Positions 376-57,978 of a DNA stretch of 64,000 nt are shown piece after piece. A program made the position numbers and the translations under genes. The notes beneath the pieces are model-generated. The model was not told the DNA's origin. It saw only the letters and a list, made by a program, of their open reading frames with translations, and ran no database searches. The stretch spans positions 848,864 through 912,863 of the forward strand of contig OZ246400.1 of NCBI GenBank assembly GCA_965230935.1, given 5' to 3'. Source of the stretch: an uncultured Gammaproteobacteria bacterium. Lineage in GTDB: Bacteria; Patescibacteriota; Patescibacteriia; Magasanikbacterales; JBBTQS01. How positions within the stretch are numbered: the first letter of the stretch is position 1; each line of letters begins with the position of its first letter.

Positions 376-477
376 ATGGGGATAGCCTGTGCTCATCACC
401 TCTTGACGTATTTTTAGCGTTTCTGTACAATAGCCGCGTAACAAATTGGTTATTTTTTTGTTCTCAAATAGGCAGGT

Positions 478-897
478 ATGCCAACAATGAACCAACTCAT
501 TCGAAAAGGCCGAAAGCCAAAGCAGAAAAAGTCTGAATCTCCGGCAATGCAGTACGCCTTTAACTCGCTTAAGCGTAAGCGCTCCTATCTTCGTCGTGGT
601 GCGCCATTTAAACGTGGAGTTTGTGTGAAAGTAACCACCAAAACACCGAAAAAGCCTAACTCAGCGCTTCGAAAAATTGCTCGTGTGCGCTTGTCAAACG
701 GTACTGAGGTTTCAGCCTACATTCCTGGTGAAGGGCACAACTTGCAAGAGCACAGTATTGTGCTGATCCGCGGTGGTCGTATTAAAGACCTTCCTGGTGT
801 TCGCTATACTATTGTTCGTGGTGTATATGACACTGCTGGAGTCGAGAATCGAAAGCGTGGTCGTTCACGGTACGGTGCGAAAAAACCAAAATCATAA
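478..897 (+). CDS. rpsL: 30S ribosomal protein S12
   Basis: [14 protein letters not shown]-terminus and the [10 protein letters not shown] motif; it sits at the head of the str operon. Confidence 0.97.
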
Positions 898-1371: not shown

Positions 1372-1382
1372 GTCCATTATTT

Positions 1383-3464
1383 ATGCCCCGAGAATATTCT
1401 TTGGATAATACTCGTAATATCGGTATTATCGCCCATATTGACGCCGGAAAAACTACGGTTACCGAGCGTATTTTGTTTTATACCGGCCGTAAGCACAAGA
1501 TTGGTGAGGTGCATGAGGGCGCAGCGGAGATGGACTGGATGGAGCAAGAGCAAGAGCGGGGGATTACGATTACATCAGCAGCAACAACCTGTTTTTGGAA
1601 TGATACTCGTATTAACATTATTGACACTCCAGGACACGTTGACTTTACCGCCGAGGTAGAGCGCAGTTTGCGTGTACTTGATGGTGGAGTTGTTATTTTT
1701 GATGGTGTTGCTGGGGTTGAGCCACAATCAGAGACCGTATGGCACCAAGCAGACAAATATAATGTTCCGCGTATTTGTTTTGTAAACAAACTTGACCGAA
1801 CCGGCGCTGACTTTATCAAAGACATGGAATCAATTCATCAACGATTGACCAAAAAGGCCTATGCCGCACAACTGCCAATTGGTGCAGAAGACAAGTTTCA
1901 AGGGGTGGTTGATTTGCTTACCCGTCGCGCGTTTATTTATAAGGATGACATGGGTAAGGAGATCGAAGAAACTGATGTGCCGGAGGACATGAAAGAACAA
2001 GTAGAGGAATACCGCGCAAAGTTGATCGAAGCCATTGTTGAGCATGATGAGCAACAAATGAATGACTTTTTTGAAGGAAAAGAAATTCCAGTGGAGGAGC
2101 TCAAAAAGACACTGCGCAAAGCCACTATTGCATATGACATTATTCCAGTATTTTGTGGTTCAGCGCTTAAAAATAAAGGCGTGCAAAAGTTGCTTGATGC
2201 CGTAGTTGAATATCTTCCCAGTCCACTTGATGTGCCGGCGGTTGAAGGGATTGATGTAAACGATGAGGAAAAGACCATGACGCGCGAGGCAGAGGATAGT
2301 GGTCCATTTTCTGCATTGGCATTTAAAATCATGACCGATCCTTTTGTTGGTAAGTTGACTTTTTTCCGTGTGTATTCAGGTGTGCTGAAGACTGGTTCTT
2401 ACATTTTCAATCCAACATCAGGCAAGAAAGAGCGCATGGGACGCATCTTGCGCATGCATGCAAACTCTCGAGAAGAGGTTCAAGAAGTGTTTGCTGGAGA
2501 GATTGCAGCCGCAGTTGGACTTAAAGATACGCGCACCGGGGACACGTTGTGTGATGAAAATCACAAGATTATTCTCGAATCTATTACATTCCCAGAGCCG
2601 GTGATTGCAGTTGCGGTTGAACCAAAGACCAAGCAAGACCAAGAAAAGATGGGATTGGCATTGGCAAAACTTTCAGAAGAAGACCCAACATTCCAAGTGC
2701 GTACTGACGAGGAGACCGGACAGACGATTATCTCAGGAATGGGTGAGCTGCACCTCGACATTATTATTGATCGCATGAAGCGTGAGTTTAAGGTAGAGGC
2801 AAATGTTGGTGCCCCACAAGTTGCGTATCGCGAAACTATTCGCACGCAGGCAGAAGCCGAAGGAAAGTTTATCAAGCAATCTGGTGGTCGCGGACAATAC
2901 GGTCATTGTTGGTTGCGGGTTGAGCCACTTGAAGAAGGGAAAGAAGGACTTGAGTTTGGTGATCAAATTAAAGGTGGTGTCATTCCAAAAGAGTACATTC
3001 CAGCAATTGGAAAGGGTGTTAAAGAAGCAATGGATCGCGGTATTATTGCCGGCTACCCACTCATTAACATCAAAGCAACCGTATACGATGGATCATTCCA
3101 CGAAGTTGACTCTTCAGAGGCAGCGTTTAAAATGGCCGGATCAATCGCGTTCCAAGCAGCAGTTAAATTGGCAAAACCAGTATTACTCGAGCCAATGATG
3201 AAAGTCGATGTTACCACTCCTGAGGAGTTTATGGGTGATGTGATTGGAGACATCAACAGTAAACGTGGACAGGTTCAAGAAATGACTGATCAGGGACAGG
3301 CTAAATTAGTGAAGTCTTTGGTACCGCTTTCTGAGATGTTTGGCTACACCACTACTTTGCGTAGCATGACCCAAGGACGAGCAAGTTCAAGCATGGAGTT
3401 TTCTCACTATGCTGAGGTGCCAAAAAATGTTGCACAAGAAGTTGCTGAGGGTAAAAAATCCTAA
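1383..3464 (+). CDS. fusA: Elongation factor G
   Basis: GTPase G1 motif AHIDAGKTT, 693 aa, in the str operon. Confidence 0.97.
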
Positions 3465-6507: not shown

Positions 6508-7140
6508 ATGGCACAAGTGAAAGTGTACAACCAAACTGGAAAAGAAGTTGAAACGCTTGAGTTGGCGGACGCAGTATTTGGTGTTGACGTGAATCCGACT
6601 GTGGTGCATGAGGTGGTGGTTGCCGCACAAGCCAATGCACGACAAGTGTTGGCACACACCAAAGGCCGATCAGAAGTTCGTGGTGGTGGGAAAAAGCCAT
6701 GGCGACAAAAAGGAACTGGTCGGGCACGACACGGATCAATTCGGTCACCACTTTGGCGTGGTGGTGGAATTACCTTTGGGCCAACCAAAGAACGTAATTT
6801 TGCTAAGCGTACCAACAAGAAGGTGAAAAAAGCGGCAATGCGCATGGTACTTTCTGATCGTGTGGCACAAGGGAATTTGATTGTGATTGATGAGCTTGCA
6901 TTCGAACAAGTGAAAACTGCTGCATTTGCCAAGATGAAAAATGCATTGCCATGCGGGTATCGCCGCGCAGTGGTGGTAACTGATCAGAAAAGTCCAGAGG
7001 TGTTGCGCATGACTAATAACTTGCAAGATGTTGACACAACCTTTGTGGGTGAGCTTGGTGTGCTTGATGTGGTGAATCACCCGTGTATGATCGTAAGCAA
7101 GAAAGCAGTACAGGCACTTGAAGCCAAGTATACGAAGTAA
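6508..7140 (+). CDS. rplD: 50S ribosomal protein L4
   Basis: The ATG at 6508 directly follows the rplC stop. MAQVKVYNQTGKEV N-terminus. Confidence 0.93.
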   Translation: MAQVKVYNQTGKEVETLELADAVFGVDVNPTVVHEVVVAAQANARQVLAHTKGRSEVRGGGKKPWRQKGTGRARHGSIRSPLWRGGGITFGPTKERNFAKRTNKKVKKAAMRMVLSDRVAQGNLIVIDELAFEQVKTAAFAKMKNALPCGYRRAVVVTDQKSPEVLRMTNNLQDVDTTFVGELGVLDVVNHPCMIVSKKAVQALEAKYTK

Positions 7141-9257: not shown

Positions 9258-9929
9258 ATGGGTCATAAAGTCCATCCAAAAATTTATCGAATCGGCACAT
9301 TGTATCCTTGGGATTCACGCTGGTTTGGACGTAAGAATAAGTACAAGTCATACTTGAAGCTTGAAATTGCGTTGCGAAAGTTTTTGGAAAAAGAGGTTCG
9401 TGAAGCAGGACTTGAGAGTATTTCCGTTGCGCACAATGCACAAGATGTCACCATTAGTTTGCGTGTGGCAAAGCCCGGACTTATCATTGGTCGTGGTGGT
9501 GCTGGAATTGAAGAGCTGAAGAAAAAGATTCAAAATAAGTTTTTCAACAAAAAGAGCAATGTTAAAGTGCAAGTGTTTGAAGTGCGTGACCCATCACGTT
9601 CCGCGAAGATCGTTGCCGGGCAAATGGCGCGAGATATTGAAAAGCGTATGCCGTTTCGTCGTGTGCTCAAGCAAGCGGTCGAGCGTGTAATGAAAGCCAA
9701 GGCAGAAGGAGTAAAGGTAAGTGTAGCTGGACGACTTAATGGTGCTGATATTGCTCGTCGCGAAACCATCTCACAAGGAAAAATCCCACTCACGACGCTT
9801 CGTGCTGATGTTGATTATGCATTAGTAGAAGCGAACACGATTTATGGAGTCATTGGTGTGAAAGTGTGGATTTATCGTGGAGAGCATTTTGGTCGATTGG
9901 ATAAGTTTGCCTCTCAAGAGAGTAAATAA
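9258..9929 (+). CDS. rpsC: 30S ribosomal protein S3
   Basis: KH and S3-C domains; MGHKVHPKIYRIG N-terminus. Confidence 0.97.
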   Translation: MGHKVHPKIYRIGTLYPWDSRWFGRKNKYKSYLKLEIALRKFLEKEVREAGLESISVAHNAQDVTISLRVAKPGLIIGRGGAGIEELKKKIQNKFFNKKSNVKVQVFEVRDPSRSAKIVAGQMARDIEKRMPFRRVLKQAVERVMKAKAEGVKVSVAGRLNGADIARRETISQGKIPLTTLRADVDYALVEANTIYGVIGVKVWIYRGEHFGRLDKFASQESK

Positions 9930-16386: not shown

Positions 16387-17013
16387 ATGCATCGTATTGT
16401 GTTGATTGGGCCGCAAGGGAGCGGCAAAGGGACGCAGGGAGAGTTACTCGCTGCGCATTTTTCTATTCCTACCATCTCTCTTGGCTCGTTGTATCGTGCC
16501 CATATTAAAGCGCAGAGTGAGACTGGAAAGAAGATCAAGTCGTATGTTGAGTCAGGAGCACTTGTTCCTGATGACATTGGTAAAGAAGTTATGCGAGAGC
16601 GCGTAGCGCAAGATGATGCAAAACCAGGATTTATTCTTGATGGATACCCGCGCAACGCCAAGCAATGCGCTGATCTTGAGGAGTTTGCTACAATAGATGC
16701 GGTGTTGGTAATCGGTATTTCTGATGAAGAAGCAGTAAAGCGAATTTCTGGCCGTCGACAATGTTCTCAAGGGCATATTTACCATGTGACGTTTAATCCT
16801 CCGCAGCAAGAGGGAGTTTGTGATCATGATGGTGAGCAATTGTACCAGCGCGACGACGACACCAAAGAAGCGGTACAAAAACGTTTGGCAATTTATCATG
16901 CTGAGACCGAACCAATTATTCAACATTATCGTGATCAAGGAATCGTCCACGACATTGATGGTGCGCAATCAGTTCAGGATGTTCAACAGTCTATTGTAGA
17001 TGTATTGCGATGA
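16387..17013 (+). CDS. adk: Adenylate kinase
   Basis: P-loop GPQGSGKGTQ; the LID region has a variant Cys/His/Cys/Asp tetrad. Confidence 0.95.
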   Translation: MHRIVLIGPQGSGKGTQGELLAAHFSIPTISLGSLYRAHIKAQSETGKKIKSYVESGALVPDDIGKEVMRERVAQDDAKPGFILDGYPRNAKQCADLEEFATIDAVLVIGISDEEAVKRISGRRQCSQGHIYHVTFNPPQQEGVCDHDGEQLYQRDDDTKEAVQKRLAIYHAETEPIIQHYRDQGIVHDIDGAQSVQDVQQSIVDVLR

Positions 17014-17057
17014 GTAAGGAAACATGGTAGCATAGAAACAATTAATCATACCTCTTT

Positions 17058-17444
17058 ATGAAAAAGGTCAAGACACAGACAAGTGTGGTGGCAGCAGTGG
17101 CAGTAGCATTGTTGGTAGTTTTTGGAGCTGGTTTAGCAGCGTATGCCGCAGGATTTTTGCCGCAAAGCACCTATGATCGTTTGCGTGAGCGTCGATTAGA
17201 ACAATATAGTCAAGAACATAAACAAAAACAGGAGTGGCTCAAGAAAAAGGCAGAAGCAAAGTATCAATTAGATCGTCGTCGTCGATTGTGGTACGGCCAA
17301 AAAGGTGGCGGTGGAAGCGCGGGATATGATACACCGGGGTACGACACTCCTGGTTACGAAACACCGGGGTACGAGACGCCAGGGTATGACACTCCAGGAT
17401 ATGATACACCCGGTTACGAAACACCGGGGTATCAGTTTCCCTAG
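17058..17444 (+). CDS. Small secreted or membrane-anchored protein with 8 C-terminal TPGY[DE] pentapeptide repeats
   Basis: N-terminal hydrophobic segment, then a coiled/basic stretch, then GYDTPGYDTPGYETPGYETPGYDTPGYDTPGYETPGYQFP. Confidence 0.6.
   Translation: MKKVKTQTSVVAAVAVALLVVFGAGLAAYAAGFLPQSTYDRLRERRLEQYSQEHKQKQEWLKKKAEAKYQLDRRRRLWYGQKGGGGSAGYDTPGYDTPGYETPGYETPGYDTPGYDTPGYETPGYQFP
17322..17441 (+). repeat. Imperfect 15-bp tandem DNA repeats encoding the TPGY[DE] pentapeptides
   Basis: Read directly from the sequence. Confidence 0.6.
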
Positions 17445-35063: not shown

Positions 35064-35092
35064 TTGACAATTTTGTCTATATGTGCTATAGT
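35064..35092 (+). promoter_or_regulatory. Near-consensus sigma70-type promoter TTGACA-N17-TGcTATAGT
   Basis: Exact -35 hexamer, 17-bp spacer and an extended -10 element, read directly from the sequence. Confidence 0.55.
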
Positions 35093-35098
35093 CTGCGC

Positions 35099-35160
35099 AG
35101 GTGATGTTTAGGTATAACCTAAGCCAAGAGGGAAACCGCCAGACTGTTGGCGGTTTTTCT
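35099..35160 (+). ncRNA. Candidate small RNA of about 60 nt (promoter to terminator unit, no ORF)
   Basis: It starts about 7 nt after the -10 element. It contains the ttaggt-ata-acctaa hairpin and ends at a strong terminator. Confidence 0.35.
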
Positions 35161-35165
35161 TTTGT
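35134..35165 (+). terminator. Intrinsic terminator (8-bp stem aaccgcca/tggcggtt followed by TTTTTCTTTTGTTTT)
   Basis: Read directly from the sequence. Confidence 0.7.
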
Positions 35166-35281
35166 TTTAGGCAATTTGCTATTGACCAGAGTATGCAGGA
35201 ATGATACCCTATGCTCGTGGTTCGAGAGGGCCTGAGCATCACCATTGGCACGAGGTTACCTCATTCGAGCCACACAAAGTA

Positions 35282-35309
35282 TCCCAGCATTGCTGGGATT
35301 TTTTGTTTG
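35282..35309 (+). terminator. Intrinsic terminator (cccagca/tgctggg followed by TTTTTTGTTTG)
   Basis: Read directly from the sequence. It follows a 10-bp G.U-containing stem at about 35212-35271 that is more stable in the plus sense. Confidence 0.55.
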
Positions 35310-35310
35310 T

Positions 35311-35364
35311 AAATCAAAACGCCCCCTCCTGCGTTGTGCGCGAAATGCGCTGCAGAAGGGGACG
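35311..35364 (-). terminator. Intrinsic terminator of the high-GC lipoprotein gene (13-bp GC-rich stem followed by TTTTGATTT on the minus strand)
   Basis: Stem cgtccccttctgc/gcaggagggggcg containing two G.U pairs in the minus sense. Confidence 0.5.
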
Positions 35365-35421
35365 CCTCAAGTTGTTGGTGAGTGTGTGGATCAGTTGCGC
35401 TGGTGAGGCGCTACCGAAGCA

Positions 35422-36381
35422 TCACTCGCCAGGACAGGTGACGACCTGGTTGAACGATTCGCTCCCGCACGAGTAGTCGTCGCAAACCGTCAGGGTGATG
35501 GTGAACTCGCCGCACTGCACGAACTCGACCGTGGCGTAGGTCTCGGTGTCGTACTTGATCAGCGGGGACTGCACGTCGGCCTCGACCGCCGTGACCTCCC
35601 ACTGGTAGCTGTCCACCATGCCGAAGTGGTCGGTGCTGGAGCCGGACTTGGTCCCGTCGAGGCTGATGTGCTTGAGCGTGTCGATGGCGATCGACTGCGG
35701 CTCGTTGATCAGGTCGATGGGGTTCCAGCTCTGGCTGTACGCCATGGCCTTGATCCGGGCGGTGGGCGCCGGCGCCTGGGTGGCGTAGCCACCGAGGCTG
35801 AGCTCGTAGGTGTGGTTCTCGATCTCAGCCGCGTGCGCCGTGGCCTCGATCGTGAGCACGCCGTAGCGGTACTCAGTGAAATCCACGTCCAGCTCGAGCT
35901 CCTCGTGCGTCTTGGGCTCGAACACGGTCGGGATGGCGCTCTTGTGGCCGGCCTCGATGGTCTGGAACCGGTTCTTGGTCGCCACATCGAAGTCCGCCTC
36001 GCCGTCGCCGTACACCACCACGTCGATCACCTCGACGTCCACGCTGTACTCGCACCCGTTGTGCACCTGGATCATGCGCTGAGTCGCGCCGCCCAGGTAC
36101 GTATCGGGGAACTCGTACGTCGCAGGGATGGTGATGCACTTGGACAGCGCCGCCGCCTCCACGTCCTGCTCGTTGTCGCTCGTCTCGTCGGACCCAGCCA
36201 GCTCGGCCGGCGGCCCCTCGGGCTCACCGTGCTCGCCGAAGCCGCAGTCGCCCTTGTAGATCTCGGCGACCTCCCAGCCGCGCTCGATCGTGGGGTCGGA
36301 CTCGGCCATGCAGCCGATCTGCGGGGTGGCAGCGATGAAAAGGACGAAGATGAGCGACGCGTTGTTGATAACCCGCTTCAT
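35422..36381 (-). CDS. High-GC secreted lipoprotein of unknown function (319 aa, Asp/Glu-rich, three Cys pairs)
   Basis: Signal peptide with a lipobox (FIAATPQIGC) and a GGAGGC RBS. About 65% GC, in sharp contrast to its flanks. The antisense ORF at 35626-36552 is compositional noise. Confidence 0.7.
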   Translation of the reverse strand: MKRVINNASLIFVLFIAATPQIGCMAESDPTIERGWEVAEIYKGDCGFGEHGEPEGPPAELAGSDETSDNEQDVEAAALSKCITIPATYEFPDTYLGGATQRMIQVHNGCEYSVDVEVIDVVVYGDGEADFDVATKNRFQTIEAGHKSAIPTVFEPKTHEELELDVDFTEYRYGVLTIEATAHAAEIENHTYELSLGGYATQAPAPTARIKAMAYSQSWNPIDLINEPQSIAIDTLKHISLDGTKSGSSTDHFGMVDSYQWEVTAVEADVQSPLIKYDTETYATVEFVQCGEFTITLTVCDDYSCGSESFNQVVTCPGE

Positions 36382-36554
36382 GAGAATGCCTCCGTTGCTT
36401 ACTGTCTCTTACTGTTGCGCTCAAACGCCGGCACCTGCCGACTCGTACTTGGGGTAAACCCGTTCCGTAGGGAATACATTTACTGTTTTTGGAAAATGCC
36501 CTCCTTACGAAGCGTTTTCTTAAACAACGTAAAATCAACTCGAAATAACTGAGA

Positions 36555-44951: not shown

Positions 44952-44980
44952 TTGACAAAAGCACCAAAATGTGTTATAGT
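44952..44980 (+). promoter_or_regulatory. Near-consensus promoter TTGACA-N17-TGtTATAGT upstream of island 2
   Basis: Read directly from the sequence. Confidence 0.55.
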
Positions 44981-45006
44981 CTTTTGTTCTTTTCATGTGC
45001 TTTTTG

Positions 45007-45097
45007 CGCGAGTTGTGTAGAGGAGGGGTCAGTAGATTGGCTCAAATATTCAAAGGAGGCCTGCAATCTACGACAGCAGTTCTCTGCACAACTCGCG
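45007..45097 (+). ncRNA. 91-nt structured leader element: 16-bp outer stem (one G.U) enclosing an 8-bp inner stem, with the SD-like AAGGAGG exposed in the apical region
   Basis: cgcgagttgtgtagag pairs with ctctgcacaactcgcg; gtagattg pairs with caatctac. Read directly from the sequence. Confidence 0.4.
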
Positions 45098-45144
45098 TAA
45101 GAAGTCTGGTGCTTGGTCTGAAACCCAAACGTTGGAGGAAGAGG

Positions 45145-45303
45145 ATGCCTTTGAACAACCCATTGATGGTCACCTGCGGGAACCGTCGCTGTCGCGCGCA
45201 CGTGGCGCTGCTGTACATGCGCGTGCCGTGTACCTCGGTCCGATTGTATCGCTCATACCTATGGGAGATACTGAGGATGTTATTTACAAATCGTGTAGAA
45301 TAA
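45145..45303 (+). CDS. Possible 52-aa Cys-rich small ORF in the leader
   Basis: Good RBS (GGAGGAAGAGG then ATG). Translation is MPLNNPLMVTCGNRRCRAH...; there is no other support. Confidence 0.2.
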   Translation: MPLNNPLMVTCGNRRCRAHVALLYMRVPCTSVRLYRSYLWEILRMLFTNRVE

Positions 45304-45481
45304 TCAGGTATACCTGTACGAATCAGCTGTCTATCTCTGAGGTGCAACGTCGCATCTTGAGCTCTAAGCAATTGAGCGTGCAGGTATGCACACATCGATG
45401 ACCTTGGAGGGTCCGATGATTTTTTCCGTTTTGACCACTTTGGCCACTATCAGCAACCCCAACGACTCCGAGGAGGGAGCC

Positions 45482-47170
45482 ATGAGCGACGACAAGAAGA
45501 GCAAGAAGAAGTCGCCGCCGGCCCCGGCGGAGGCGAACGAGGGCGATGCGAAGCGCAAGTACGAGCCGGGTGACGGGCCCTACGAGCGCGTTCACGCGGA
45601 CGTCATCGGCTCGATGGAGGCGCAGTACTGCTGCAATCCTTTCGACCAGGCCGACGCGTGTGACTTCACCGGCGGTCCGGACGAGCTGACGTTGCCGAGC
45701 TTCAAGGCGCTCAACAGCAGCATCAGCCGGGTGCACGGGCTCAAGCGCGGGTTCTTCCCGGGTGACGAGGCCATCTACGCCCGTTGCCCGCAACACGCGC
45801 ACGAGGTCCGGTACGGCAACCGGACGATCCGCGAGACCTTCAAGTACACGGCCGATCGTTGGGCCGGTAAGGGTCGGACCCCGAGCACCTGGATGGCGCA
45901 GCCGCTGCCGCACCCCGAGGCCTTCAATAAGCACCCGTACTGCACTCCGTGCAGCGGGAGCTGCGGCGGCCTGTGGCTCGAGACCAACCTGTACGCCCCG
46001 CAGCCCGAGGCGCTCGTGGAGCAGCTGGAGGACGTCGAGTCCACCGGCGCGCTCACGCGGGAGCACTTCGGCGCGCATCTGCTGTGCAAGCGGTGCGTGG
46101 ACGCTGACGCGGTCGAGCAGGGGACCCTCGTCGAGTTCGCCACGATCGTGGCGGCCTTGGGTTGGGAGCCGCGGGAGTACGTGCCCGAGGCGCTCGATCT
46201 CGAGGGGTTCGAGGGGACGCAGGTCACGGTTGAGCACCCGCAGCTCGAGGTCTCGCAGAAGCTCCAGGCCGTGGTTCGTTCGACTCACACGTCGTTCGGG
46301 GTGTTCGCCCGCATCGTGGATGACGGACGTGACGCCCTGTTGCGTTGGGAGGACGTCAACGCGGACTACAACGTGGGTGACGTGATCGACATCTGGATCG
46401 CGCGGCTGCACTGCAAGACGGGTGAGGACGGCGAGTCGGATCGCCTCTTCATCTGGGCGGCGGACACCAAGCCCGTGCTCTTGGCGGACGTCAAGTCCGG
46501 CCAGGAGTTCGATGGCGAGGTGGCCTCCCACGCGCCCTTCGGCATGTTCGTGCGCATCGGTCCGGCTCTGCCGGCTGGTGTCGTGCACAAGAGCGTGCTG
46601 AGCGGCCGTTCGCGCGACGACTTCCCGGTGAACACGTTCGTCCGGGTCATGGTCAGCGACGTGGACCACAAGCGTTCTCGACTCAACCTCGTGTTGGTCG
46701 AAGACGTGGAGGGAAGCAGAGCGGTCCAGGACTGGAAGGCGCAGGCGCCGGGAGCGGAGGACGTGGTCTCGGTCGACCAGGAGGTGGGGAAAGGTAAGAC
46801 CCCCACCAAGGTCGGCCTGACCATGGTTCCGCCCAAGTCCGAGCAGCCCAAGTCCAAGAAGTCCCGGTTCGTCCCCAGGCGCCGCACGACGTACGTGGTG
46901 GGTCCCAAGCCCGCCGCTGCGCAGCAGCGTGAGGAGGTCGAGGCGCAGCTCGCCGATGCCGCCAAGGTGTTCGGTGAGGCCGAGCACATCCAGAAGACCG
47001 GTACCTACGGGGCCGGATCCAAGGACAGCATCGGTCGCTCGCTCGAGGGGCGCAAGGCCGGTAAGGCCAAGCGCTCGAAAGCCGAGGAGATCAAGGATCG
47101 GACGCTCAAGGTGTTCGGCGACCTCTTCAACGTCCGCCAGGGCAAGGGCAAGAAGGGCAAGGGCAACTGA
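45482..47170 (+). CDS. High-GC 562-aa protein: N-terminal Cys/His-rich region, three S1/OB-like RNA-binding domains and a Lys/Arg-rich tail
   Basis: GAGGAGGG RBS 6 nt upstream of the ATG. One canonical S1 motif (GQEFDGEVASHAPFGMFVRIGPALPAGVVHKSVLS) and two degenerate ones. About 66% GC with GC3-rich codons. The antisense 622-aa ORF is noise. Confidence 0.7.
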   Translation: MSDDKKSKKKSPPAPAEANEGDAKRKYEPGDGPYERVHADVIGSMEAQYCCNPFDQADACDFTGGPDELTLPSFKALNSSISRVHGLKRGFFPGDEAIYARCPQHAHEVRYGNRTIRETFKYTADRWAGKGRTPSTWMAQPLPHPEAFNKHPYCTPCSGSCGGLWLETNLYAPQPEALVEQLEDVESTGALTREHFGAHLLCKRCVDADAVEQGTLVEFATIVAALGWEPREYVPEALDLEGFEGTQVTVEHPQLEVSQKLQAVVRSTHTSFGVFARIVDDGRDALLRWEDVNADYNVGDVIDIWIARLHCKTGEDGESDRLFIWAADTKPVLLADVKSGQEFDGEVASHAPFGMFVRIGPALPAGVVHKSVLSGRSRDDFPVNTFVRVMVSDVDHKRSRLNLVLVEDVEGSRAVQDWKAQAPGAEDVVSVDQEVGKGKTPTKVGLTMVPPKSEQPKSKKSRFVPRRRTTYVVGPKPAAAQQREEVEAQLADAAKVFGEAEHIQKTGTYGAGSKDSIGRSLEGRKAGKAKRSKAEEIKDRTLKVFGDLFNVRQGKGKKGKGN

Positions 47171-47258
47171 GACCTGGTAGAGGCCAGGCACTACACGACA
47201 ACAACAACTGGTTTTGGGGCGGCGCGGACAACGGAGTAACTTCCCGCGTTTGCGTCGC

Positions 47259-47308
47259 CCCTGTCCAATAGTGCAGCTCAGTATACTGAGAGATACTATT
47301 GGGCAGGG
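47259..47308 (+). promoter_or_regulatory. 50-bp near-perfect palindrome (14-bp arms flanking the self-complementary CTCAGTATACTGAG), immediately upstream of the RBS of the next gene
   Basis: Read directly from the sequence. Operator-like. Confidence 0.35.
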
Positions 47309-47326
47309 AAGACAAGGAGGGCCATC

Positions 47327-48001
47327 TTGAAGAGTTTTTCCTCTTTTCGTCTGGTTCGGCGAAGAGGGTTTCGATGGTCAGTGCTGCTTGTCATGCTGGT
47401 CATCTTCATCTTGATTTTTGTCCCGTTGGAGGTGGCACCTATGACGACTACGCCGGAACATGTGGTGAGCTGTGATGCGCCCAGCAAGGTCGTCGTCAGT
47501 TTCACTCAGGAGCAGATGCGCCAACAGGTGAGCCGGGTGTTTCCGATCAATTTGCCTGAGGTGGTGCGCATGGTGGACGTGGTGCTGCACGATCCATCGA
47601 TCACCTTGAACCAGATCAGCGCCAGCACAGTCACACTGGAGCTCGGCGCAACGTTGGTGGTGAGCACGCCATTGCCTGGTGTTCCGGAAGGGCGGTATCG
47701 TGCAACGATCAGCGCCACCGGATCGTTGGTGTACGGCAATGTGCACAAGGCCGTGTACATCAGTGAGTTTGCCATCACGCAGCTCACGCTCAGCGGACGT
47801 CTTGCGCATGTTCAGGACTCGACGCGCTTGCGCGCGTATGTCCAGGAGGTGTTGCAACAGCAGGTGCTGAGTAATGTGCCGCTGTACCGGACAAGTGAGG
47901 CTCAACTCGCCACGATCGCACCAAATGCGGCTGTGGTACAGGCTGCACTCACCCCCAGTGGGGAGGTGCACATTGGTCTGAGCTGGGATGAGCACCGCTG
48001 A
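47327..48001 (+). CDS. DUF1439 (YceB-like) family protein with signal peptide; TTG start
   Basis: AAGGAGGG RBS 7 nt upstream of the TTG. Basic-hydrophobic N-terminus. Resemblance to the DUF1439 pattern. About 58-60% GC. Confidence 0.55.
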   Translation: MKSFSSFRLVRRRGFRWSVLLVMLVIFILIFVPLEVAPMTTTPEHVVSCDAPSKVVVSFTQEQMRQQVSRVFPINLPEVVRMVDVVLHDPSITLNQISASTVTLELGATLVVSTPLPGVPEGRYRATISATGSLVYGNVHKAVYISEFAITQLTLSGRLAHVQDSTRLRAYVQEVLQQQVLSNVPLYRTSEAQLATIAPNAAVVQAALTPSGEVHIGLSWDEHR

Positions 48002-48028
48002 TCACTCGACAACTCATACAACCGTTGG

Positions 48029-48065
48029 CCGCGCGAGCAAACTGCACGCGCGGCTTTCGAATTTG
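48029..48065 (+). terminator. GC-rich hairpin terminator ending island 2 (gccgcgcg...cgcgcggc followed by tttcgaattt)
   Basis: Read directly from the sequence. Confidence 0.45.
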
Positions 48066-48968: not shown

Positions 48969-50492
48969 TTAGCGAGCGTATTCAATAACTCGTGTCTCGC
49001 GGATCACTGTGACCTTTACTTCACCAGGATATTTGATTTCTGACTCAATATTGCGAGCAATATTCTTGGCCAAGCCAAATGCACCGTAATCGTCCAGATT
49101 TTTAGGGTTCACAAACACGCGAATTTCACGTCCTGCCTGAATCGCATAGGCTTTTTCAACTCCAGGATGGCTATTAGCTATGTTTTCAAGTTCTTCAAGC
49201 TTTTGGATATACAGCTCATGAGAGTCTCGTCGGGCTCCTGGACGTGCCCCAGAAAGCGCATCTGCTACTTTGGAAATCGAACCAAGCAATGTCTTTGGTG
49301 CGTCCTCATGATGGGCAACACAACAATAGGCAATCTCTTCCGGCATGTTGAATTTTTTCATGATGGCATAGCCAATTTCTGGATGTCCTCCTTGAGTTTC
49401 GTGATCTACCGCTTTTCCAATATCATGGAACAATCCTGCTTTTTTGGCAGCAACCGGGTCAGCGCCTAACTCTTTTGCAAGCATTTCAGAGAAATATGCC
49501 ACTTCTTTTGAATGTTTGAGTTGGTTTTGGCCAAAGCTGGTGCGGTATTTCAATCGTCCTAAAATAGACACAAGCTTTGGATCAATGCCGGTAATACCAA
49601 GTTCATACAGCACTTCTTCACCGGCGCGTTTAATATCAAGTGCTAACTCCTTTTTGGCCTCTTCAACAAAGTTTTCAATACGCGCCGGATGGATCCGACC
49701 ATCTTTAAGCAGTTTCTCTAATGTGATTCGTGCCACTTGACGACGAATCGGCGCAAAACTTGAGATAGTAACCACACCAGGGGTCTCATCGATAATAAAG
49801 TCACAGCCGGTGAGGCGCTCAAGCATGCGGATGTTGCGCCCCTCTTTTCCAATAATGCGTCCCTTCATTTCTTCATTAGGGATTTCTACCACGCTGGTTG
49901 CATTTTCTGAGACTGTTGAAGCCGCATACCGTTCCATAATGACCGAGAGTTTGCGATTGGCAATGCGCTCAAGTTCTTCTTCGTCTTCTCGTTGGAGTTT
50001 TTGGATGCGACTTGCAAGCTCTTCTTTTGATTGCTCTTCTACTTTTTCGAGCAACTGTGTTTTGGCGTCTTCCACTGATAATTTTGCCACTCCTTCAAGC
50101 TTGGTAATTTCTTGATTGCGGATGTCCTCAATCTCAGTTGCCTTATTTTTGACTAATTCGATCTGCTCTTTGAGCTTTTCTTGTCGATCCTGAAACTCCA
50201 TGAGCTTTTGATCAAACATGTTTTCTCGTTTTTCAAGTCGATCTTGTGTTTGTTTGAGCTCATTGCGTCGGGTTTGTTCTTCTTTTTTGGCTTCATCTAA
50301 TACATGCAATGCCTTCTCCTTGGCCTCAAGCATGATCTGTTGCTGTTTGGCTTTGGTCTCGGTGAGCATTTTGTCAGCTCGTGCTTCAATAGAGTTGGCA
50401 TTGGCAGCAGCAAGTTGCTTGCGCAACACGTACCCAATAGCAAAACCGACAATGGCAGTACCCAGTGCAATAAGAATGGTAGTGGTAGTCAT
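48969..50492 (-). CDS. rny: Ribonuclease Y
   Basis: N-terminal TM segment, coiled coil, KH domain (IGKEGRNIR) and HD domain (GLFHDIGK). Confidence 0.93.
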   Translation of the reverse strand: MTTTTILIALGTAIVGFAIGYVLRKQLAAANANSIEARADKMLTETKAKQQQIMLEAKEKALHVLDEAKKEEQTRRNELKQTQDRLEKRENMFDQKLMEFQDRQEKLKEQIELVKNKATEIEDIRNQEITKLEGVAKLSVEDAKTQLLEKVEEQSKEELASRIQKLQREDEEELERIANRKLSVIMERYAASTVSENATSVVEIPNEEMKGRIIGKEGRNIRMLERLTGCDFIIDETPGVVTISSFAPIRRQVARITLEKLLKDGRIHPARIENFVEEAKKELALDIKRAGEEVLYELGITGIDPKLVSILGRLKYRTSFGQNQLKHSKEVAYFSEMLAKELGADPVAAKKAGLFHDIGKAVDHETQGGHPEIGYAIMKKFNMPEEIAYCCVAHHEDAPKTLLGSISKVADALSGARPGARRDSHELYIQKLEELENIANSHPGVEKAYAIQAGREIRVFVNPKNLDDYGAFGLAKNIARNIESEIKYPGEVKVTVIRETRVIEYAR

Positions 50493-51364: not shown

Positions 51365-51513
51365 ATACTGAGTTTTAGGATTGATAATATGTTCAAACTA
51401 TACTAGTATCATCAATACTACTCAAGACAAGTCATGACGGATGGTGCGTGTCCTATATTTAGGGTAGGCATGGTCCGTTATACAGCCACGGGTTGGTTGG
51501 AGGAGTACCTCAG

Positions 51514-52416
51514 ATGATAATTGAAGTCGGCCCAGACGGGGGGAGCGTAAAGCATCCTCCTCCTGCTGGCAGCAGCGAAGACCGGCGGCGTCGTGGCCGT
51601 AGCAGAGGTCGACGCGGTGGTCGGCGAGGAAAAGGAACAGGAGGTTCAAAACTCGATTCGTCAAATAGGGCCTCGGGTGGTGCAGACCCTCCTAGGCTAG
51701 TCGTAAGGGGGAAAGAACCACCATCGGATAGTCCTCCCGACGAGTCAGTGTTACTGGCCGCACAGTTGATGGAGCTTGTAGAGGGCTCTTTAGACTCGAG
51801 CGGGTTGCCAGGCTTGCGGGAATTTGATCCTGAGTTGAGCTCAGAGGATCGCGAGGAGTTGCGTCAACGGTTTCGAGAGGTCGTGGCCAAGTTGTGCGCG
51901 CACGTGGATCAGTTGCAGCTTCACCAGCTGGCGCTCCAGCCAGATGTCGGTGGACCGCTTCGCGAGGTGCGTCTATGCTTGCTCGGCTGGATGGATCTTG
52001 CGAGTGCTCGACGCAAAGCGGTGTATGCGGCGCTTGATCGCGCAATACTCGCCTTGATCGCGCAAGAGGAGAGCGACCCAAAGGAGTCACTTGGACGTAC
52101 CCAGCGTCGGCGGCGTGAGCGACGTTCACGGATTGCACGTCAAGTGCGACAGCTTCGCTTGCGCCTGGAATCTATCCATCCCGGCAAGGATGGTATGAGT
52201 TTTCAGGAGTACGATCTTGTGCGTCCGGCCCTTGAAGGGCAAATTCGTCGATTGGCTGAAGTTCGAGATTTGAGACGCAACAGACGGGCACAGACCCTCT
52301 TTGCTCATCTGCTCGAGACTCTGCCTATGTGGCGCGGGCTTCCAAGAGCAGAACGACGAGTAGTGCTCTATGAGCTCAGACGGCTTGAGAGGCTGTTCAC
52401 GGACTCAGACTCGTAG
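51514..52416 (+). CDS. High-GC hypothetical protein (300 aa; Arg/Gly-rich N-terminus, Arg/Leu-rich helical remainder)
   Basis: GGAGGAG RBS 7 nt upstream of the ATG at 51514. About 60% GC; the antisense ORF is noise. No recognisable domain. Confidence 0.55.
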   Translation: MIIEVGPDGGSVKHPPPAGSSEDRRRRGRSRGRRGGRRGKGTGGSKLDSSNRASGGADPPRLVVRGKEPPSDSPPDESVLLAAQLMELVEGSLDSSGLPGLREFDPELSSEDREELRQRFREVVAKLCAHVDQLQLHQLALQPDVGGPLREVRLCLLGWMDLASARRKAVYAALDRAILALIAQEESDPKESLGRTQRRRRERRSRIARQVRQLRLRLESIHPGKDGMSFQEYDLVRPALEGQIRRLAEVRDLRRNRRAQTLFAHLLETLPMWRGLPRAERRVVLYELRRLERLFTDSDS

Positions 52417-55005: not shown

Positions 55006-57978
55006 ATGAAAGAATACGATTTTCAATCTATTGAGCCTAAATGGCAGAAATACTGGGAAAAGCACGGCACGTTTCGTGCGCATGATTTTTCAGCTGACAA
55101 GCCCAAGTACTATCCATTAGTTGAGTTTCCGTATCCATCGGGTGCTGGTTTGCATGTTGGTCATCCACGTCCATACACTGCGCTTGATATTGTGGCGCGC
55201 AAACGTCGCATGGAAGGCTACAATGTGCTTTATCCCATTGGGTGGGATGCATTTGGGTTGCCGACGGAAAACTACGCCATTAAGACCGGTCGTCCGCCGG
55301 CTGAAGTTACTGCCGAGAATATCGAGACATTTACGCAGCAGATCAAGTCTTTGGGTATTTCATTTGATTGGTCACGCGAGGTAAATACCACTGACCCATC
55401 ATATTATAAGTGGACACAATGGATTTTTTTGAAATTATTTGAACATGGCTTGGCTTATAAAGCGAATATTCCAATCAACTGGTGTTTGTCATGCAAGATT
55501 GGATTGGCTAACGAAGAAGTGGTGGAAGGGAAGTGTGAGCGGTGTGGTGGTGAAGTAGAGAAGCGTGACAAAGAACAATGGATGCTGGCGATCACCAAAT
55601 ATGCTGATCGACTGCTTGCAGATTTGGACACCATTGATTACATCGAGCGTGCGAAGGTGCAGCAACGCAATTGGATTGGGCGAAGTGAAGGGGTGCGCTG
55701 GGTTCAGAAGATCAAAGATTTTGATATTGAGATCAAAGCATTTGATTCAGTACCACAAACCTACATGGCGCAAACATTTGCCGTGATTGCTGCGGATCAT
55801 CCATTGCTTAAGACGTTGGTTGAAGGTACTGAGCATGAGGGGCCAGTCATGAAAAAAGCTAAAGAGATTTTGGCGGCTAAGATGAGTGACAAATATGACG
55901 AAGATAAGCAGATGGAGGGCATTTTTACCGGTCGCTACATTGAGGATCCGTTTGGCACAGGGGATTTACCGATTTGGGTTGCATCATTTGCTATTGCTGA
56001 TTATGGATCTGGGATTGTGAATTGTAGTGCCCATGATGAGCGAGATTTTGCGTTTGCCAAAAAGTTTGATATTCCGTTGCGGCCAGTGATGTTCCCAGAA
56101 GATAAGGACGAGGCGCAAAAGGTTCGCGATTTGGAGTATTGTTATCATCACGATGAGAATGCCGTGCTTGCCGCTCCTGAGCAATTTGCTGGGCGTAAAT
56201 GGGGTGAGGCGCGCGAGGATATTATTGCGCATGTTGAAAGCCTTGGTATTGGCGAGCGAGCAGTACAATATAAATTGCGTGATTGGGTATTTTCTCGTCA
56301 GCGCTATTGGGGAGAGCCGATTCCTTTGGTTAAATGCGAGCCATGTGGTGGATGGATACCAATTCCGATTGAGCAACTTCCACTTACGTTGCCCGAAGTT
56401 AAAAAATACGAACCAACTGATACCGGGGAGTCACCGCTGGCAGCAATGGAGGATTGGGTAAACACCACGTGTCCAAAATGTGGTGGGCCGGCTAAGCGTG
56501 AGACCGATACCATGCCAAACTGGGCCGGGAGTAGTTGGTACTTTTTGCGCTATTGTAGCCCGGATGATCCAGAGTTTTTCACGCATGAGAAAAAATGGAA
56601 GCGCGACGCAATCGAGCCAAATGATCATGACAAGGCGGTGTGGCAAACGTTTATGTTATTGCGTGATGCGTTTTCCAGTGCTGGTGTGCGATTTTGGGTG
56701 TGTGGAAGCCTGCTGATTAATGCACTTAACCGCGCAATCTGGAAACACATGGACGATTTAGACATTCATGTGCACAGCCGGGATTATGAGCAGGCAATTG
56801 CACTGTTGGAGTCATTAGGTATGACTATGAATCAACGACGAGAGGGAAGTTGTCAGATGACCCATGGTGAAGTGGATATTGAGTTGATCGCAATTGATGA
56901 AGCAAATGGCCACCAATATTCCTATTATGCCAATGGTCAGCGTATTGTTTTGGCGCGTAATGACTGGGAGTTGGTAGAGCGTGGCGAGCTGTTTGGTGAG
57001 AGCTTCAGTACAGTGTCTCCTTGGCATGCGTTGTGGCAGTATACGTATTTGCAAAAATATTTCGAACGAGAAAAAGAAGGTGATGAAGATAAGAAAGCTT
57101 TCTTGAAAGAATATCTGGAGGATCCGGTAAATTATTGGATGGGTGTTGATTGGTATAACGGTGGTATGGAACATACCGTATTGCATTTGTTGTATTCACG
57201 GTTCTGGAACAAGTTTTTGTTTGACATTGGTGCTGTGCCAGTGAGCGAGCCGTACAATAAACGCACCAGCCATGGATTGATCTTGGCTGAAGGTGGAGAG
57301 AAGATGAGTAAATCTCGGGGGAATGTTATTAATCCAAATGAGATTGTGGAGCAGTTTGGCGCGGACACATTGCGCACATATGAAATGTTTATTGGACCAT
57401 TTGATCAGCATGCGGCATGGTCTACCAAAGGATTGGTTGGGGTACATCGATTTTTAGAAAGGATCTGGAAGGTTCAGGAAAAGGTTGATCAGGTGGCTGA
57501 TGATCAGGTTGATTCGGCATTGATGCAAAAGATGCATTACACCATTGCCAAGGTTGATGCTGATATTGAAGCGATGCGGTTTAACACGGCGATTGCCGCA
57601 CTCATGGAATTAAACAATGTATTGATGAAAGAGGAGGTGGTACCGCTTTCGGTGTATCGAACGTTGGTGCAATTATTAAGTCCTTTTGCGCCGCATCTGT
57701 GTGAAGAGCTTTGGCAAACATTTGGTGATTCTGATGTTTCGATTTCAAAAGCCCAGTGGCCAGTTGTTGATCCTACTTGGTTAGTACATGAAGAAGTTAC
57801 CATTGTGGTGCAAGTAAACGGAAAGGTTCGTGCGCAAGTAGATGTGAGTGTAGATATTCCTGAAGATGAGCTTAAAGCATTGGCATTAGCTGAGCCAAAA
57901 GTCGCTAAATGGCTTGATGGGAAAACGCCGCAAAAGATAATTGTGGTTGCAGGAAAGTTGGTGAGCATTGTGGTCTAA
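55006..57978 (+). CDS. leuS: Leucyl-tRNA synthetase carrying an extra roughly 175-aa insertion
   Basis: HVGH and KMSKS motifs, a CP1 region and zinc knuckles. At 990 aa it is well above the typical bacterial length. Confidence 0.93.
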   Translation: MKEYDFQSIEPKWQKYWEKHGTFRAHDFSADKPKYYPLVEFPYPSGAGLHVGHPRPYTALDIVARKRRMEGYNVLYPIGWDAFGLPTENYAIKTGRPPAEVTAENIETFTQQIKSLGISFDWSREVNTTDPSYYKWTQWIFLKLFEHGLAYKANIPINWCLSCKIGLANEEVVEGKCERCGGEVEKRDKEQWMLAITKYADRLLADLDTIDYIERAKVQQRNWIGRSEGVRWVQKIKDFDIEIKAFDSVPQTYMAQTFAVIAADHPLLKTLVEGTEHEGPVMKKAKEILAAKMSDKYDEDKQMEGIFTGRYIEDPFGTGDLPIWVASFAIADYGSGIVNCSAHDERDFAFAKKFDIPLRPVMFPEDKDEAQKVRDLEYCYHHDENAVLAAPEQFAGRKWGEAREDIIAHVESLGIGERAVQYKLRDWVFSRQRYWGEPIPLVKCEPCGGWIPIPIEQLPLTLPEVKKYEPTDTGESPLAAMEDWVNTTCPKCGGPAKRETDTMPNWAGSSWYFLRYCSPDDPEFFTHEKKWKRDAIEPNDHDKAVWQTFMLLRDAFSSAGVRFWVCGSLLINALNRAIWKHMDDLDIHVHSRDYEQAIALLESLGMTMNQRREGSCQMTHGEVDIELIAIDEANGHQYSYYANGQRIVLARNDWELVERGELFGESFSTVSPWHALWQYTYLQKYFEREKEGDEDKKAFLKEYLEDPVNYWMGVDWYNGGMEHTVLHLLYSRFWNKFLFDIGAVPVSEPYNKRTSHGLILAEGGEKMSKSRGNVINPNEIVEQFGADTLRTYEMFIGPFDQHAAWSTKGLVGVHRFLERIWKVQEKVDQVADDQVDSALMQKMHYTIAKVDADIEAMRFNTAIAALMELNNVLMKEEVVPLSVYRTLVQLLSPFAPHLCEELWQTFGDSDVSISKAQWPVVDPTWLVHEEVTIVVQVNGKVRAQVDVSVDIPEDELKALALAEPKVAKWLDGKTPQKIIVVAGKLVSIVV
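56600..57125 (+). other. Inserted domain within LeuS resembling the Lnu/ANT(2'') nucleotidyltransferase fold (PF10706-like), likely degenerate
   Basis: RFWVCGSLLINAL...KHMDDLDIHVHSRDYEQAIALLESLG...EVDIELIAI parallels YWLDGGWGVDVL...REHRDIDIDFDAQHTQKVIQKLEDIG...YLDIHPINL of Lnu(A) and the ANT(2'')-Ia pattern. The insert lies between YFLRY and the GGMEH motif. Confidence 0.45.

Follow-up and report, generated by a model that had tools for sequence, protein, structure and literature searches.

A stretch of 64,000 nucleotides (nt) of contig OZ246400.1 (positions 848,864 to 912,863, forward strand), referred to as the window, raises the question of what a long hairpin does between a strong promoter and a GC-rich gene. 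The window has a G+C content of about 45% and contains two sharply bounded islands (~35300-36400 and ~45000-48050) with GC fractions of 0.63-0.72; promoter and hairpin are located at the left edge of island 2. The hairpin is very probably a selected, cis-acting RNA structure. Homologues of the LCP protein place the organism in the Patescibacteria, near Ca. Magasanikbacteria.

The leader hairpin and its homologues

The hairpin starts about 13 nt after the predicted transcription start (~G44986). Its lower stem consists of 26 uninterrupted base pairs (bp; 44999-45024 with 45080-45105), five of which are G-U. This is followed by an internal loop (GGG, 45025-45027; AGCAG, 45075-45079), a 3-bp mini-helix GUC/GAC (45028-45030 with 45072-45074), an upper stem of 7 bp (45032-45038 with 45065-45071), a 4-bp clamp GGCU/GGCC (45039-45042 with 45058-45061) with the 3' bulge UGC, and an apical loop of 15 nt (45043-45057). 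The sense (+) strand folds with -56.1 kcal/mol (z = -8.0), a value equalled by none of 200 shuffled sequences. The antisense (-) strand reaches only -36.7 kcal/mol, because the five G-U pairs turn into A-C mismatches. Inverted repeats of at least 18 nt within 200 nt occur four times in the whole window, twice in island 2. An earlier interpretation made from the letters of the window without database searches (the sequence-only reading) had described a nested hairpin of 91 nt with a 16-bp and an 8-bp stem. The hairpin is real and larger than was stated; the two stems are its core, and the 16-bp stem (45007-45022 / 45082-45097) extends through A-U and G-U pairs to 26 bp.

No family of Rfam 15 matched the hairpin when the window, the leader and the relatives were searched at gathering and permissive thresholds, to E = 10. 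The matches in the window were two tRNAs elsewhere, and those in the leader were sub-threshold chance matches to miRNA precursors (at most 21 bits against thresholds of at least 90). A hit to a known leader family, which the sequence-only reading had named as grounds for giving up its proposal, was not obtained. The helix is followed by CUGGUGCUUGG and no U-tract, and the terminator scan did not report it; the hairpin is therefore not an intrinsic terminator, and an attenuator of that kind was rejected together with it. Also rejected were a riboswitch (the structure is rod-like, without a junction and without Rfam match), a retron msr-msd (no reverse transcriptase), a type I toxin leader (the small open reading frame (ORF) is neither hydrophobic nor conserved) and a put-like antiterminator (no supporting feature).

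LCP identity to the window is 68% for the relatives L066 and L067, 62% for L070 and 48-49% for L074 and L075. Homologous hairpins were found in L070, which carries two copies ~1 kb apart, and in L071, which repeats copy 1 of L070; three distinct copies from two related species are thus available. A covariance model built from the window copy alone found both L070 copies with 34.3 and 30.6 bits (E ~1e-6 to 1e-5 in 144 kb, sense strand only), and a model built from the L070 copies alone found the window copy with 48.1 bits (E = 2e-8 in 190 kb, + strand only). All copies are in sense orientation, within a leader or an intercistronic spacer, and the GC-rich genes that follow them have strong ribosome-binding sites (RBS). 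Each is preceded by a U-rich tract and stands 39-69 nt upstream of a Shine-Dalgarno sequence (SD) and start codon. Copy 1 of L070 is 58 nt upstream of the GGAGGGaaaaAUG of a 221-aa GC-rich gene, whose 5' end is resembled by that of the S1-domain gene following the window copy.

Pairwise identity among the three copies is 54-72%. In the model-fitted alignment 96.4% of the 111 pair cells are paired, which none of 500 shuffles reached; slid registers gave 35-46%. This alignment shifts registers, which inflates its count of 25 compensatory pairs. In a conservative hand alignment anchored on the conserved motifs, 11 of 40 pairs are compensatory and 4 show one-sided changes. Its cells comprise 92 Watson-Crick pairs, 12 G-U, at most one A-C and one other, so that G-U stands to A-C as 12 to 0 (p = 0.0005), or as 12 to 1 if one A/C handled as an indel is counted. 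The sense fold is more stable than the antisense fold in two of the three copies. Pairing has been kept through divergence, with a bias towards one strand, which therefore points to a selected sense-strand RNA structure. The proposal of a cis-regulatory RNA in the sequence-only reading is strengthened by this conservation, covariation and G-U bias.

The length of the lower helix is held while its sequence varies (26 bp in the window, 24-25 and 25 bp in the L070 copies). The upper stem measures 5-7 bp and is always paired, although its sequence is wholly different in each copy. Common to all copies are the GGCU/GGCC clamp with a 3' bulge of 3-5 nt, an AU-rich loop, and GUG(U)AGAGGAGGG at the upper end of the 5' arm, reaching into the internal loop. 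At their bases the helices have the sequences GCUUUUUG/UAAGAAGU and (AU)CAGAGUG/C(G/A)CUCUGA(U). No further copy was found in 19 kb of extra flank of the same genome, nor in L066, L067, L069, L072, L074 and L075. Viral contigs queried with the S1-domain protein, the helix and the loop motifs gave no match. A looser 13-mer pattern gave 86 matches in viral contigs, and the covariance model rejected all 80 of the loci examined. A plasmid BLAST search with the whole island was without match.

It is very improbable that the palindrome has no present function, as a selfish or relic repeat or an inverted RBS duplication, or that it merely belongs to a coding frame of 88-102 aa (44995/45037 to 45303). 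The 5' arm does hold a sequence like an RBS, as though a gene start had been duplicated there, and an open frame does span the hairpin, but pairing was maintained through 28-46% divergence with compensatory changes, the frame is not conserved and meets stops in the L070 copies, and a 26-bp helix at codons 2-37 would block translation. The coordinates of the hairpin and its surroundings are shown in Table 1.

Table 1. Features of islands 1 and 2 in the window, and hairpin copies in the relative L070
Feature	Position	Strand	Details
Strong sigma-70-type promoter	44952..44980	+	TTGACA 44952-44957, 17-nt spacer, TATAGT 44975-44980
U-rich unpaired 5' tail	44981..44998	+	CUUUUGUUCUUUUCAUGU; from sequence and fold
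Conserved RNA hairpin, 107 nt	44999..45105	+	From folds, homologues, covariance models and pair counts
Conserved purine-rich SD-like tract	45015..45027	+	GUGUAGAGGAGGG; invariant alignment columns
Apical AAGGAGG (sequence-only reading)	45053..45059	+	Specific to the window copy; last two G paired in the clamp
GGAGG and possible 52-aa ORF	45134..45303	+	GGAGG 45134-45138, 6 nt upstream of ATG 45145; ORF 45145-45303
Second long leader hairpin	45306..45392	+	Arms 45310-45320 / 45377-45387 and inner pairs
GC-rich orphan gene, S1-domain RNA-binding protein	45416..47170	+	Start ATG 45416 (SD GGAGGG) or ATG 45482 (SD GAGGAGGGAG)
Two adjacent hairpins with 13-bp stems, spacer between S1-domain and DUF1439 genes	47217..47306	+	z = -4.2
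DUF1439-family gene	47327..48001	+	TTG start, N-terminal membrane anchor, 58% GC; PF07273, E = 2.8e-10
Terminator-like GC hairpin	48029..48065	+	GCCGCGCG, 11 nt, CGCGCGGC, then UUUCGAAUUU; read from sequence
Island 1 terminator-like hairpin	35318-35360
Island 1 gene, signal-peptide protein	35422-36381	-	319 aa, 65% GC, GC at third codon positions (GC3) 0.94, weak PKD-like domain
Island 1 near-consensus promoter	36583-36555	-	Own promoter of island 1
L070 copy 1	1482..1374	sense	109-nt hairpin, 125 nt after homologous promoter
L070 copy 2	519..416	sense	Next intergenic spacer, 69 nt before following SD and start

Possible roles of the hairpin in the mRNA

The island-2 promoter agrees with the consensus at 11 of 12 positions and carries an extended -10 element (TGtTATAGT, TG at 44972-44973), as the earlier description of a consensus promoter had it. 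Four promoters of this quality were found in the 64 kb, those of tuf, of a putative small RNA (sRNA) and of islands 1 and 2. The hairpin behind it may well be a cis-acting element for mRNA processing and stability, a reading that we favour tentatively. Each copy would be transcribed within an mRNA, as part of its 5' leader or of a spacer separating two cistrons, and the GC-rich genes that follow are under the strongest promoter type of the lineage. A U-rich single strand followed by an uninterrupted helix of 24-26 bp could act as a guide or as a barrier. The helix would guide an endonucleolytic cut, either immediately 5' of itself, as with RNase Y, or inside it, as with RNase III, and the U-rich tail could be the nuclease entry or cleavage site; alternatively the helix might halt 5'-to-3' exonucleolytic trimming. 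The downstream coding RNA would then keep a structured, protected 5' end, and the conserved GAGGAGGG tract at the junction of stem and loop may also hold a 30S subunit, as STAB-SD sequences do. Cleavage, stabilisation and contact with the ribosome are all inferred. A gene for RNase Y is located in the window (48969-50492, TIGR03319, E = 2.9e-177). The rod shape, the fixed helix length, the ORF downstream, the U-rich 5' strand, the lack of a U-tract, the RNase Y gene and the precedents described below are the reasons why processing and stability are favoured.

In the saePQRS transcript of Staphylococcus aureus, RNase Y is directed by an intergenic double-stranded RNA (dsRNA) of 24 bp to a cut site 6 nt upstream of it; the cut makes the RNA on its 5' side less stable and the fragment on its 3' side more stable (Marincola and Wolz 2017, PMC5449607). 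The present copies resemble this guide helix in their long uninterrupted dsRNA (24 bp there, 24-26 bp here) located in a leader or intergenic region after a single-stranded site, and in the presence of an encoded RNase Y. The same outcome, with upstream RNA destabilised and downstream RNA stabilised, would make sense for all three copies. Differences are the lack of any sequence relation, the host (a Firmicute there, a Patescibacterium here), and the conserved upper stem, clamp, AU-rich loop and SD-like tract that the hairpin adds; cleavage, moreover, is here a proposal only.

The intercistronic sites of phage T7 are RNase III processing helices. RNase III also cuts the leader helices of E. 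coli pnp and rnc (PMC3997798). Shared with these sites are at least two helical turns of dsRNA with an internal loop, and a location in the leaders or intercistronic regions of strongly transcribed operons; the length of the helix is above the dsRNA length of at least about 20-22 bp that applies to RNase III. In the known systems such processing leaves stable mRNAs with a hairpin at their end. Similarity to these sites in sequence is lacking, and most bacterial RNase III sites have a shorter and less perfect helix than the lower one here.

The 5' untranslated region (UTR) of E. coli ompA and the leader of B. subtilis aprE are stabilisers that need about 4 or fewer unpaired nt at the 5' end. 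Like them, the hairpin is a stable stem-loop near the 5' end of a long-leader mRNA with a strong promoter. In contrast, ~13 nt (window) to ~125 nt (L070 copy 1) precede the helix, so that prior trimming or cleavage would be needed for an action of this type.

In cry3A of B. thuringiensis the STAB-SD, an SD-like sequence in the 5' UTR, binds 30S subunits without initiation, blocks RNase J1 and stabilises the mRNA (Agaisse and Lereclus 1996; reviewed in PMC4113751). A similar SD-like purine tract (GAAAGGAGG there, GAGGAGGG here) is present in the long 5' UTR, far from the start and close to where the transcript, mature or primary, begins, and in none of the three copies is it followed by a conserved start codon or ORF. 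The STAB-SD is a free single strand, whereas the present tract is half buried in the 26-bp helix, and the native genes of the source organism use no SDs. The hairpin family is uncatalogued and small, and it belongs to the known class of leader and intercistronic mRNA hairpins.

Several observations weigh against processing and stability as the role of the hairpin. L066 and L067, the closest relatives by LCP, have the same promoter and GC-rich genes without the hairpin, which is therefore dispensable for expressing such genes. Neither rnc, among the genes examined, nor a gene for RNase J was seen in the window and its flanks (83 kb). Unless it is trimmed, the 5' tail of 13 nt exceeds the length that stabiliser hairpins at a 5' terminus can tolerate. 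In the predicted minimum free energy and centroid folds AGAGGA(G) of the SD-like tract is paired and only GGG is unpaired, which would tend to argue against free access of the 30S subunit. The number of distinct copies is three, from two species, with a single copy in 83 kb of the source genome, and covariation from three sequences in partly model-fitted alignments is weak by R-scape standards. Finally, transcription from the island-2 promoter, and the use of that promoter itself, are predicted from its sequence.

The sequence-only reading had placed its emphasis on an exposed apical AAGGAGG as a ribosome decoy or standby site. The motif is present, but it is not fully exposed (Table 1), and the role proposed for it finds no support in that form, as the apical loops of both L070 copies are AU-rich and contain no GGA (UAAAAUAUAUAUUC, UAAAAUCUAAUUUC). 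Judged by the alignment, the wrong SD-like motif had been stressed and the conserved one is the tract GUGUAGAGGAGGG. This tract closely resembles the true RBS GUGUAGGAGGG-N5-7-AUG of the GC-rich genes in L066 and L067, and a role in ribosome binding is possible.

Translational control through this tract is nevertheless unlikely, be it that GAGGAGGG (with the apical AAGGAGG in the window copy) serves as a standby or decoy site, or that the helix is a switch sequestering an SD. The conservation of the tract in three copies and its near identity with the RBS of the sister genes speak for it, as does an 88-aa frame in the window that begins with a TTG 8 nt downstream of GGAGGGG. A free anti-SD could also be strongly drawn to such sites: within positions -20 to -4 of the native genes GGAGG was found in 0 of 49 cases and any 4-mer core in 5 of 49, whereas GGAGG is present at all five candidate island start sites of four genes (36381 (-), 45145, 45416, 45482 and 47327). 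Set against this, neither a start codon nor an ORF has been conserved behind the tract (L070 copy 1 has 10 codons there and copy 2 none), most of the tract is paired, and the apical motif is not conserved. The real starts, at a distance of 39-310 nt, are served by SDs of their own that are not sequestered by the helix. A switch of the RNA thermometer type was rejected on the grounds that the real SDs and starts are outside the helix and no conserved start follows the tract.

There is a slim chance that the hairpin is a binding site for an RNA-binding protein, such as in autoregulation by an S1-domain or basic protein, or that it is the source of a separate leader-derived sRNA. The conserved loop and clamp (GGCU-UAAAAU...-GGCCU) resemble a recognition surface, and probable nucleic-acid binders are predicted downstream (S1 domains here, Lys/Arg-rich and CxxC proteins in L070 and L067). 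The pnp leader of E. coli, in which an S1/KH protein acts on its own leader helix, is a precedent (PMC3997798). But the proteins downstream of the three copies are mutually unrelated, which makes a common encoded partner unlikely, and no terminator follows the hairpin to define a separate sRNA.

The GC-rich islands and their genes

The transcription unit of island 2 is composed of the promoter, the leader hairpin, a possible small ORF, a second hairpin, the S1-domain gene, two hairpins, the DUF1439-family gene and a terminator-like hairpin. The leader extends over ~430 nt to ATG 45416 or ~495 nt to ATG 45482, against the roughly 500 nt first estimated. A small hairpin, GACCUUGGAGGGUC, follows the second leader hairpin and covers the GGAGGG of ATG 45416; the fold of the complete leader has z = -4.1. 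The second of the two hairpins in the spacer before the DUF1439 gene ends 8 nt before the SD AAGGAGGG (47314-47321). The two are unrelated in sequence to the leader hairpin and gave no match to its covariance models. The hairpin at 48029-48065 is the end of the unit, and it was not flagged by the terminator scan because its loop is longer than 8 nt.

A small Cys-rich ORF had been proposed after the leader hairpin. Its frame stands, from ATG 45145 to the stop at 45303 (52 aa) with a good SD, but neither homologue nor family was found for it: it has no counterpart in any relative and no Pfam match, and its GC content at codon positions 1/2/3 (0.47/0.43/0.66) is weakly gene-like. The region that holds it (45106-45415, 310 nt) has no counterpart in the homologous L070 module. 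The ORF could be a small gene, or else what remains of a GC-rich gene that was lost.

The protein of the S1-domain gene has a Cys-rich N-terminal part, one or more S1 domains at residues ~250-440 (Pfam S1, E = 9e-7) and a Lys-rich tail. A word-index search of a 5.8-billion index gave no match. An exhaustive HMMER search against 1.84 billion representatives found generic S1 proteins only (best E = 4e-17, 29% identity), and a metagenome scan gave just two chance S1-domain loci. By these searches the protein is an orphan apart from its S1 domain(s). The sole database match of the DUF1439 protein is itself.

The GC content of the S1-domain gene at codon positions 1/2/3 is 0.66/0.45/0.90 on the + strand, as compared with a GC3 of ~0.38 in native genes. 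From GC content by codon position it follows that the real genes are on the + strand in island 2 and on the - strand in island 1; their SDs are GGAGG or AGGAGGG. The NCBI/ENA records hold the antisense ORFs of 622 aa (45323-47191, -) and 308 aa (35626-36552, +), neither of which has a Pfam match, and an exact-sequence look-up showed that the sense proteins are absent from them. For both island genes, then, the annotated strand is the wrong one. The combination of AGGAGG and a start that opens a gene-length ORF is almost confined to the islands, and island 1 also has an orphan AAGGAGGG at 36506-36499 (- strand), ~120 nt upstream of the start.

An assembly chimera as the origin of island 2 was rejected, since four independent contigs cross the junction of AT-rich and GC-rich DNA identically. 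All short-read assemblies of the organism break inside island 2. ENA contigs have an end or a start at 46544, 46531 or 46562, all within the coding part of the S1-domain gene, and Logan contigs end at 45475, 45561 and 46864. These breaks could reflect low coverage of GC-rich DNA or strain heterogeneity.

An ORF of 307 aa between truB and infB (51493-52416, +) has no Pfam family, and its GC content is locally raised to ~0.50, with 0.6 in some stretches; possibly it too is a lineage-specific gene that belongs to the compositional class of the island genes. The leucyl-tRNA synthetase gene of the window (55006-57978) carries an inserted nucleotidyltransferase-like segment at residues ~548-632 with weak Pfam matches to Aminoglyc_resit and NTP_transf_5.

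Gene slots in relatives and wider meaning

The gene order in relatives is RNase Y, HU, HU, a slot, LCP, Der, Pth, DprA, FolC, TopA, a second slot and ParB. Both slots are essentially empty in the distant relatives L074 and L075, while the closer L066, L067 and L070 have their own small GC-rich genes (0.60-0.67) in them. These genes have a homologous promoter (TTGACAAAA...TGnTATAGT-like) and strong SDs (GUGUAGGAGGG-N5-7-AUG). The promoter of L070 (1639-1611) is 84% identical to that of the window over 31 nt, and the promoters of L066 and L067 carry TTGACAAAAnCnnTTTTTTGTGCTA. The island-1 protein has a homologue with 27% identity in the same slot of L066 (14935-15786, E = 2e-20). On the basis of homologous promoters, slot genes and this homologue, the GC-rich genes are recurrent and fast-evolving in the sub-clade and not a one-off import. 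A scan of a genome collection with a Der/EngA query, in which pattern seeding needs close relatives, returned unrelated taxa only, with at most 39% identity.

The occupancy of these slots bears on a reading at the DNA level, in which the hairpin is a cassette boundary or recombination site (attC-like) or a co-transcribed repeat like a Correia element or a miniature inverted-repeat transposable element (MITE). Such elements are likewise imperfect palindromes of ~100 nt that alternate with variable genes after one strong promoter and conserve structure more than sequence. The hairpins travel with the variable GC-rich genes and not with the conserved backbone: the window and L070 have them, L066 and L067, which are closer by LCP, do not, and in L070 hairpins and ORFs take turns in the manner of a cassette array. 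The cargo of the slot between HU and LCP differs in each relative and is missing from L074 and L075, and ComEC and DprA are present. All the same, this reading is quite improbable. The hairpin lacks R/L boxes (RYYYAAC/GTTRRRY) and extrahelical bases, its lower helix is uninterrupted, and no target-site duplication or flanking direct repeat was seen. No integrase, transposase or other recombinase was found in the window ORFs scanned near the islands. Copy number is low (one in 83 kb), and the copies are 54-72% identical and yet pair almost perfectly. Sites of attC type fold on the bottom strand. The G-U bias of the hairpin favours the coding (top) strand, which fits RNA and not folding of bottom-strand DNA. 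An integron attC was rejected on box and spacer features, the lack of intI or a tyrosine recombinase near the islands and the occurrence of a pair of copies in L070 only. A MITE or Correia-like repeat was rejected because the copy is alone in 83 kb, its relatives are not near-identical and target duplications are lacking.

Other structured elements were observed in the window and the relatives. A candidate conserved non-coding RNA of ~220-250 nt is located at 35064-35312 (+) of the window, 16915-17166 (-) of L066 and 9635-9853 (-) of L069. It has a consensus extended -10 promoter at 35064-35092, a long-range pairing of GGUGAUGUUUAGG with CCUGAGCAUCACC, a terminator-like hairpin in its interior (~35140-35175) and a terminator at its end (35281-35299). 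The two relatives are 71-74% identical to it (E = 2e-33 and 3e-18), and no Rfam family matched. L067 contains a repeated intergenic element of ~75 nt between GC-rich genes (~6566-6639 and ~6030-6103, -) with the consensus cagtccttttctYYaacatctaaccgRcGAGGTGGttacgtKcacRcgtgCCACCTCcgtccgacttc, a family that differs from the window hairpin. Structured repeats between GC-rich genes seem to be a general feature. In L074 (1-251) and L075 (8291-8561) a structured element of ~270 nt with long-range inverted repeats of 39-49 nt lies beside the HU genes; it has been called as an ORF of 73-75 aa and matches no Rfam family at threshold.

The genomic context is more unusual than the hairpin itself, with islands of 65% GC in a genome of 45% GC, native genes without SDs, and the genes of both islands assigned to the wrong strand. 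Their high GC content seems to have been preserved over time: the island-1 orthologues are 27% identical and both GC-rich, and no donor was found among billions of proteins. It is a speculative and rather doubtful possibility that in this sub-clade of the Patescibacteria the hairpin marks, at the RNA level, gene modules of a hitherto undescribed class, each composed of a strong promoter, the hairpin, a canonical SD and an orphan gene. The genes of such modules would have ~60-67% GC (GC3 0.8-0.94), evolve fast, encode nucleic-acid-binding or secreted products and occupy hot-spot slots.

If this class is real, it would imply a dedicated regime of expression and RNA processing, or a mechanism of exchange, with the hairpin as its signal, possibly tied to an episymbiotic lifestyle. 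If the modules are maintained and not imported, the question arises how and why composition, RBS signals and RNA structure stay distinct in a small genome. Should calls on the wrong strand be widespread, proteins of GC-rich islands would be missing from the databases, look like orphans and be hidden from protein-based searches. Post-transcriptional control in the Candidate Phyla Radiation (CPR)/Patescibacteria is little known, and the hairpin is a candidate new RNA family and a handle on mRNA processing in these organisms.

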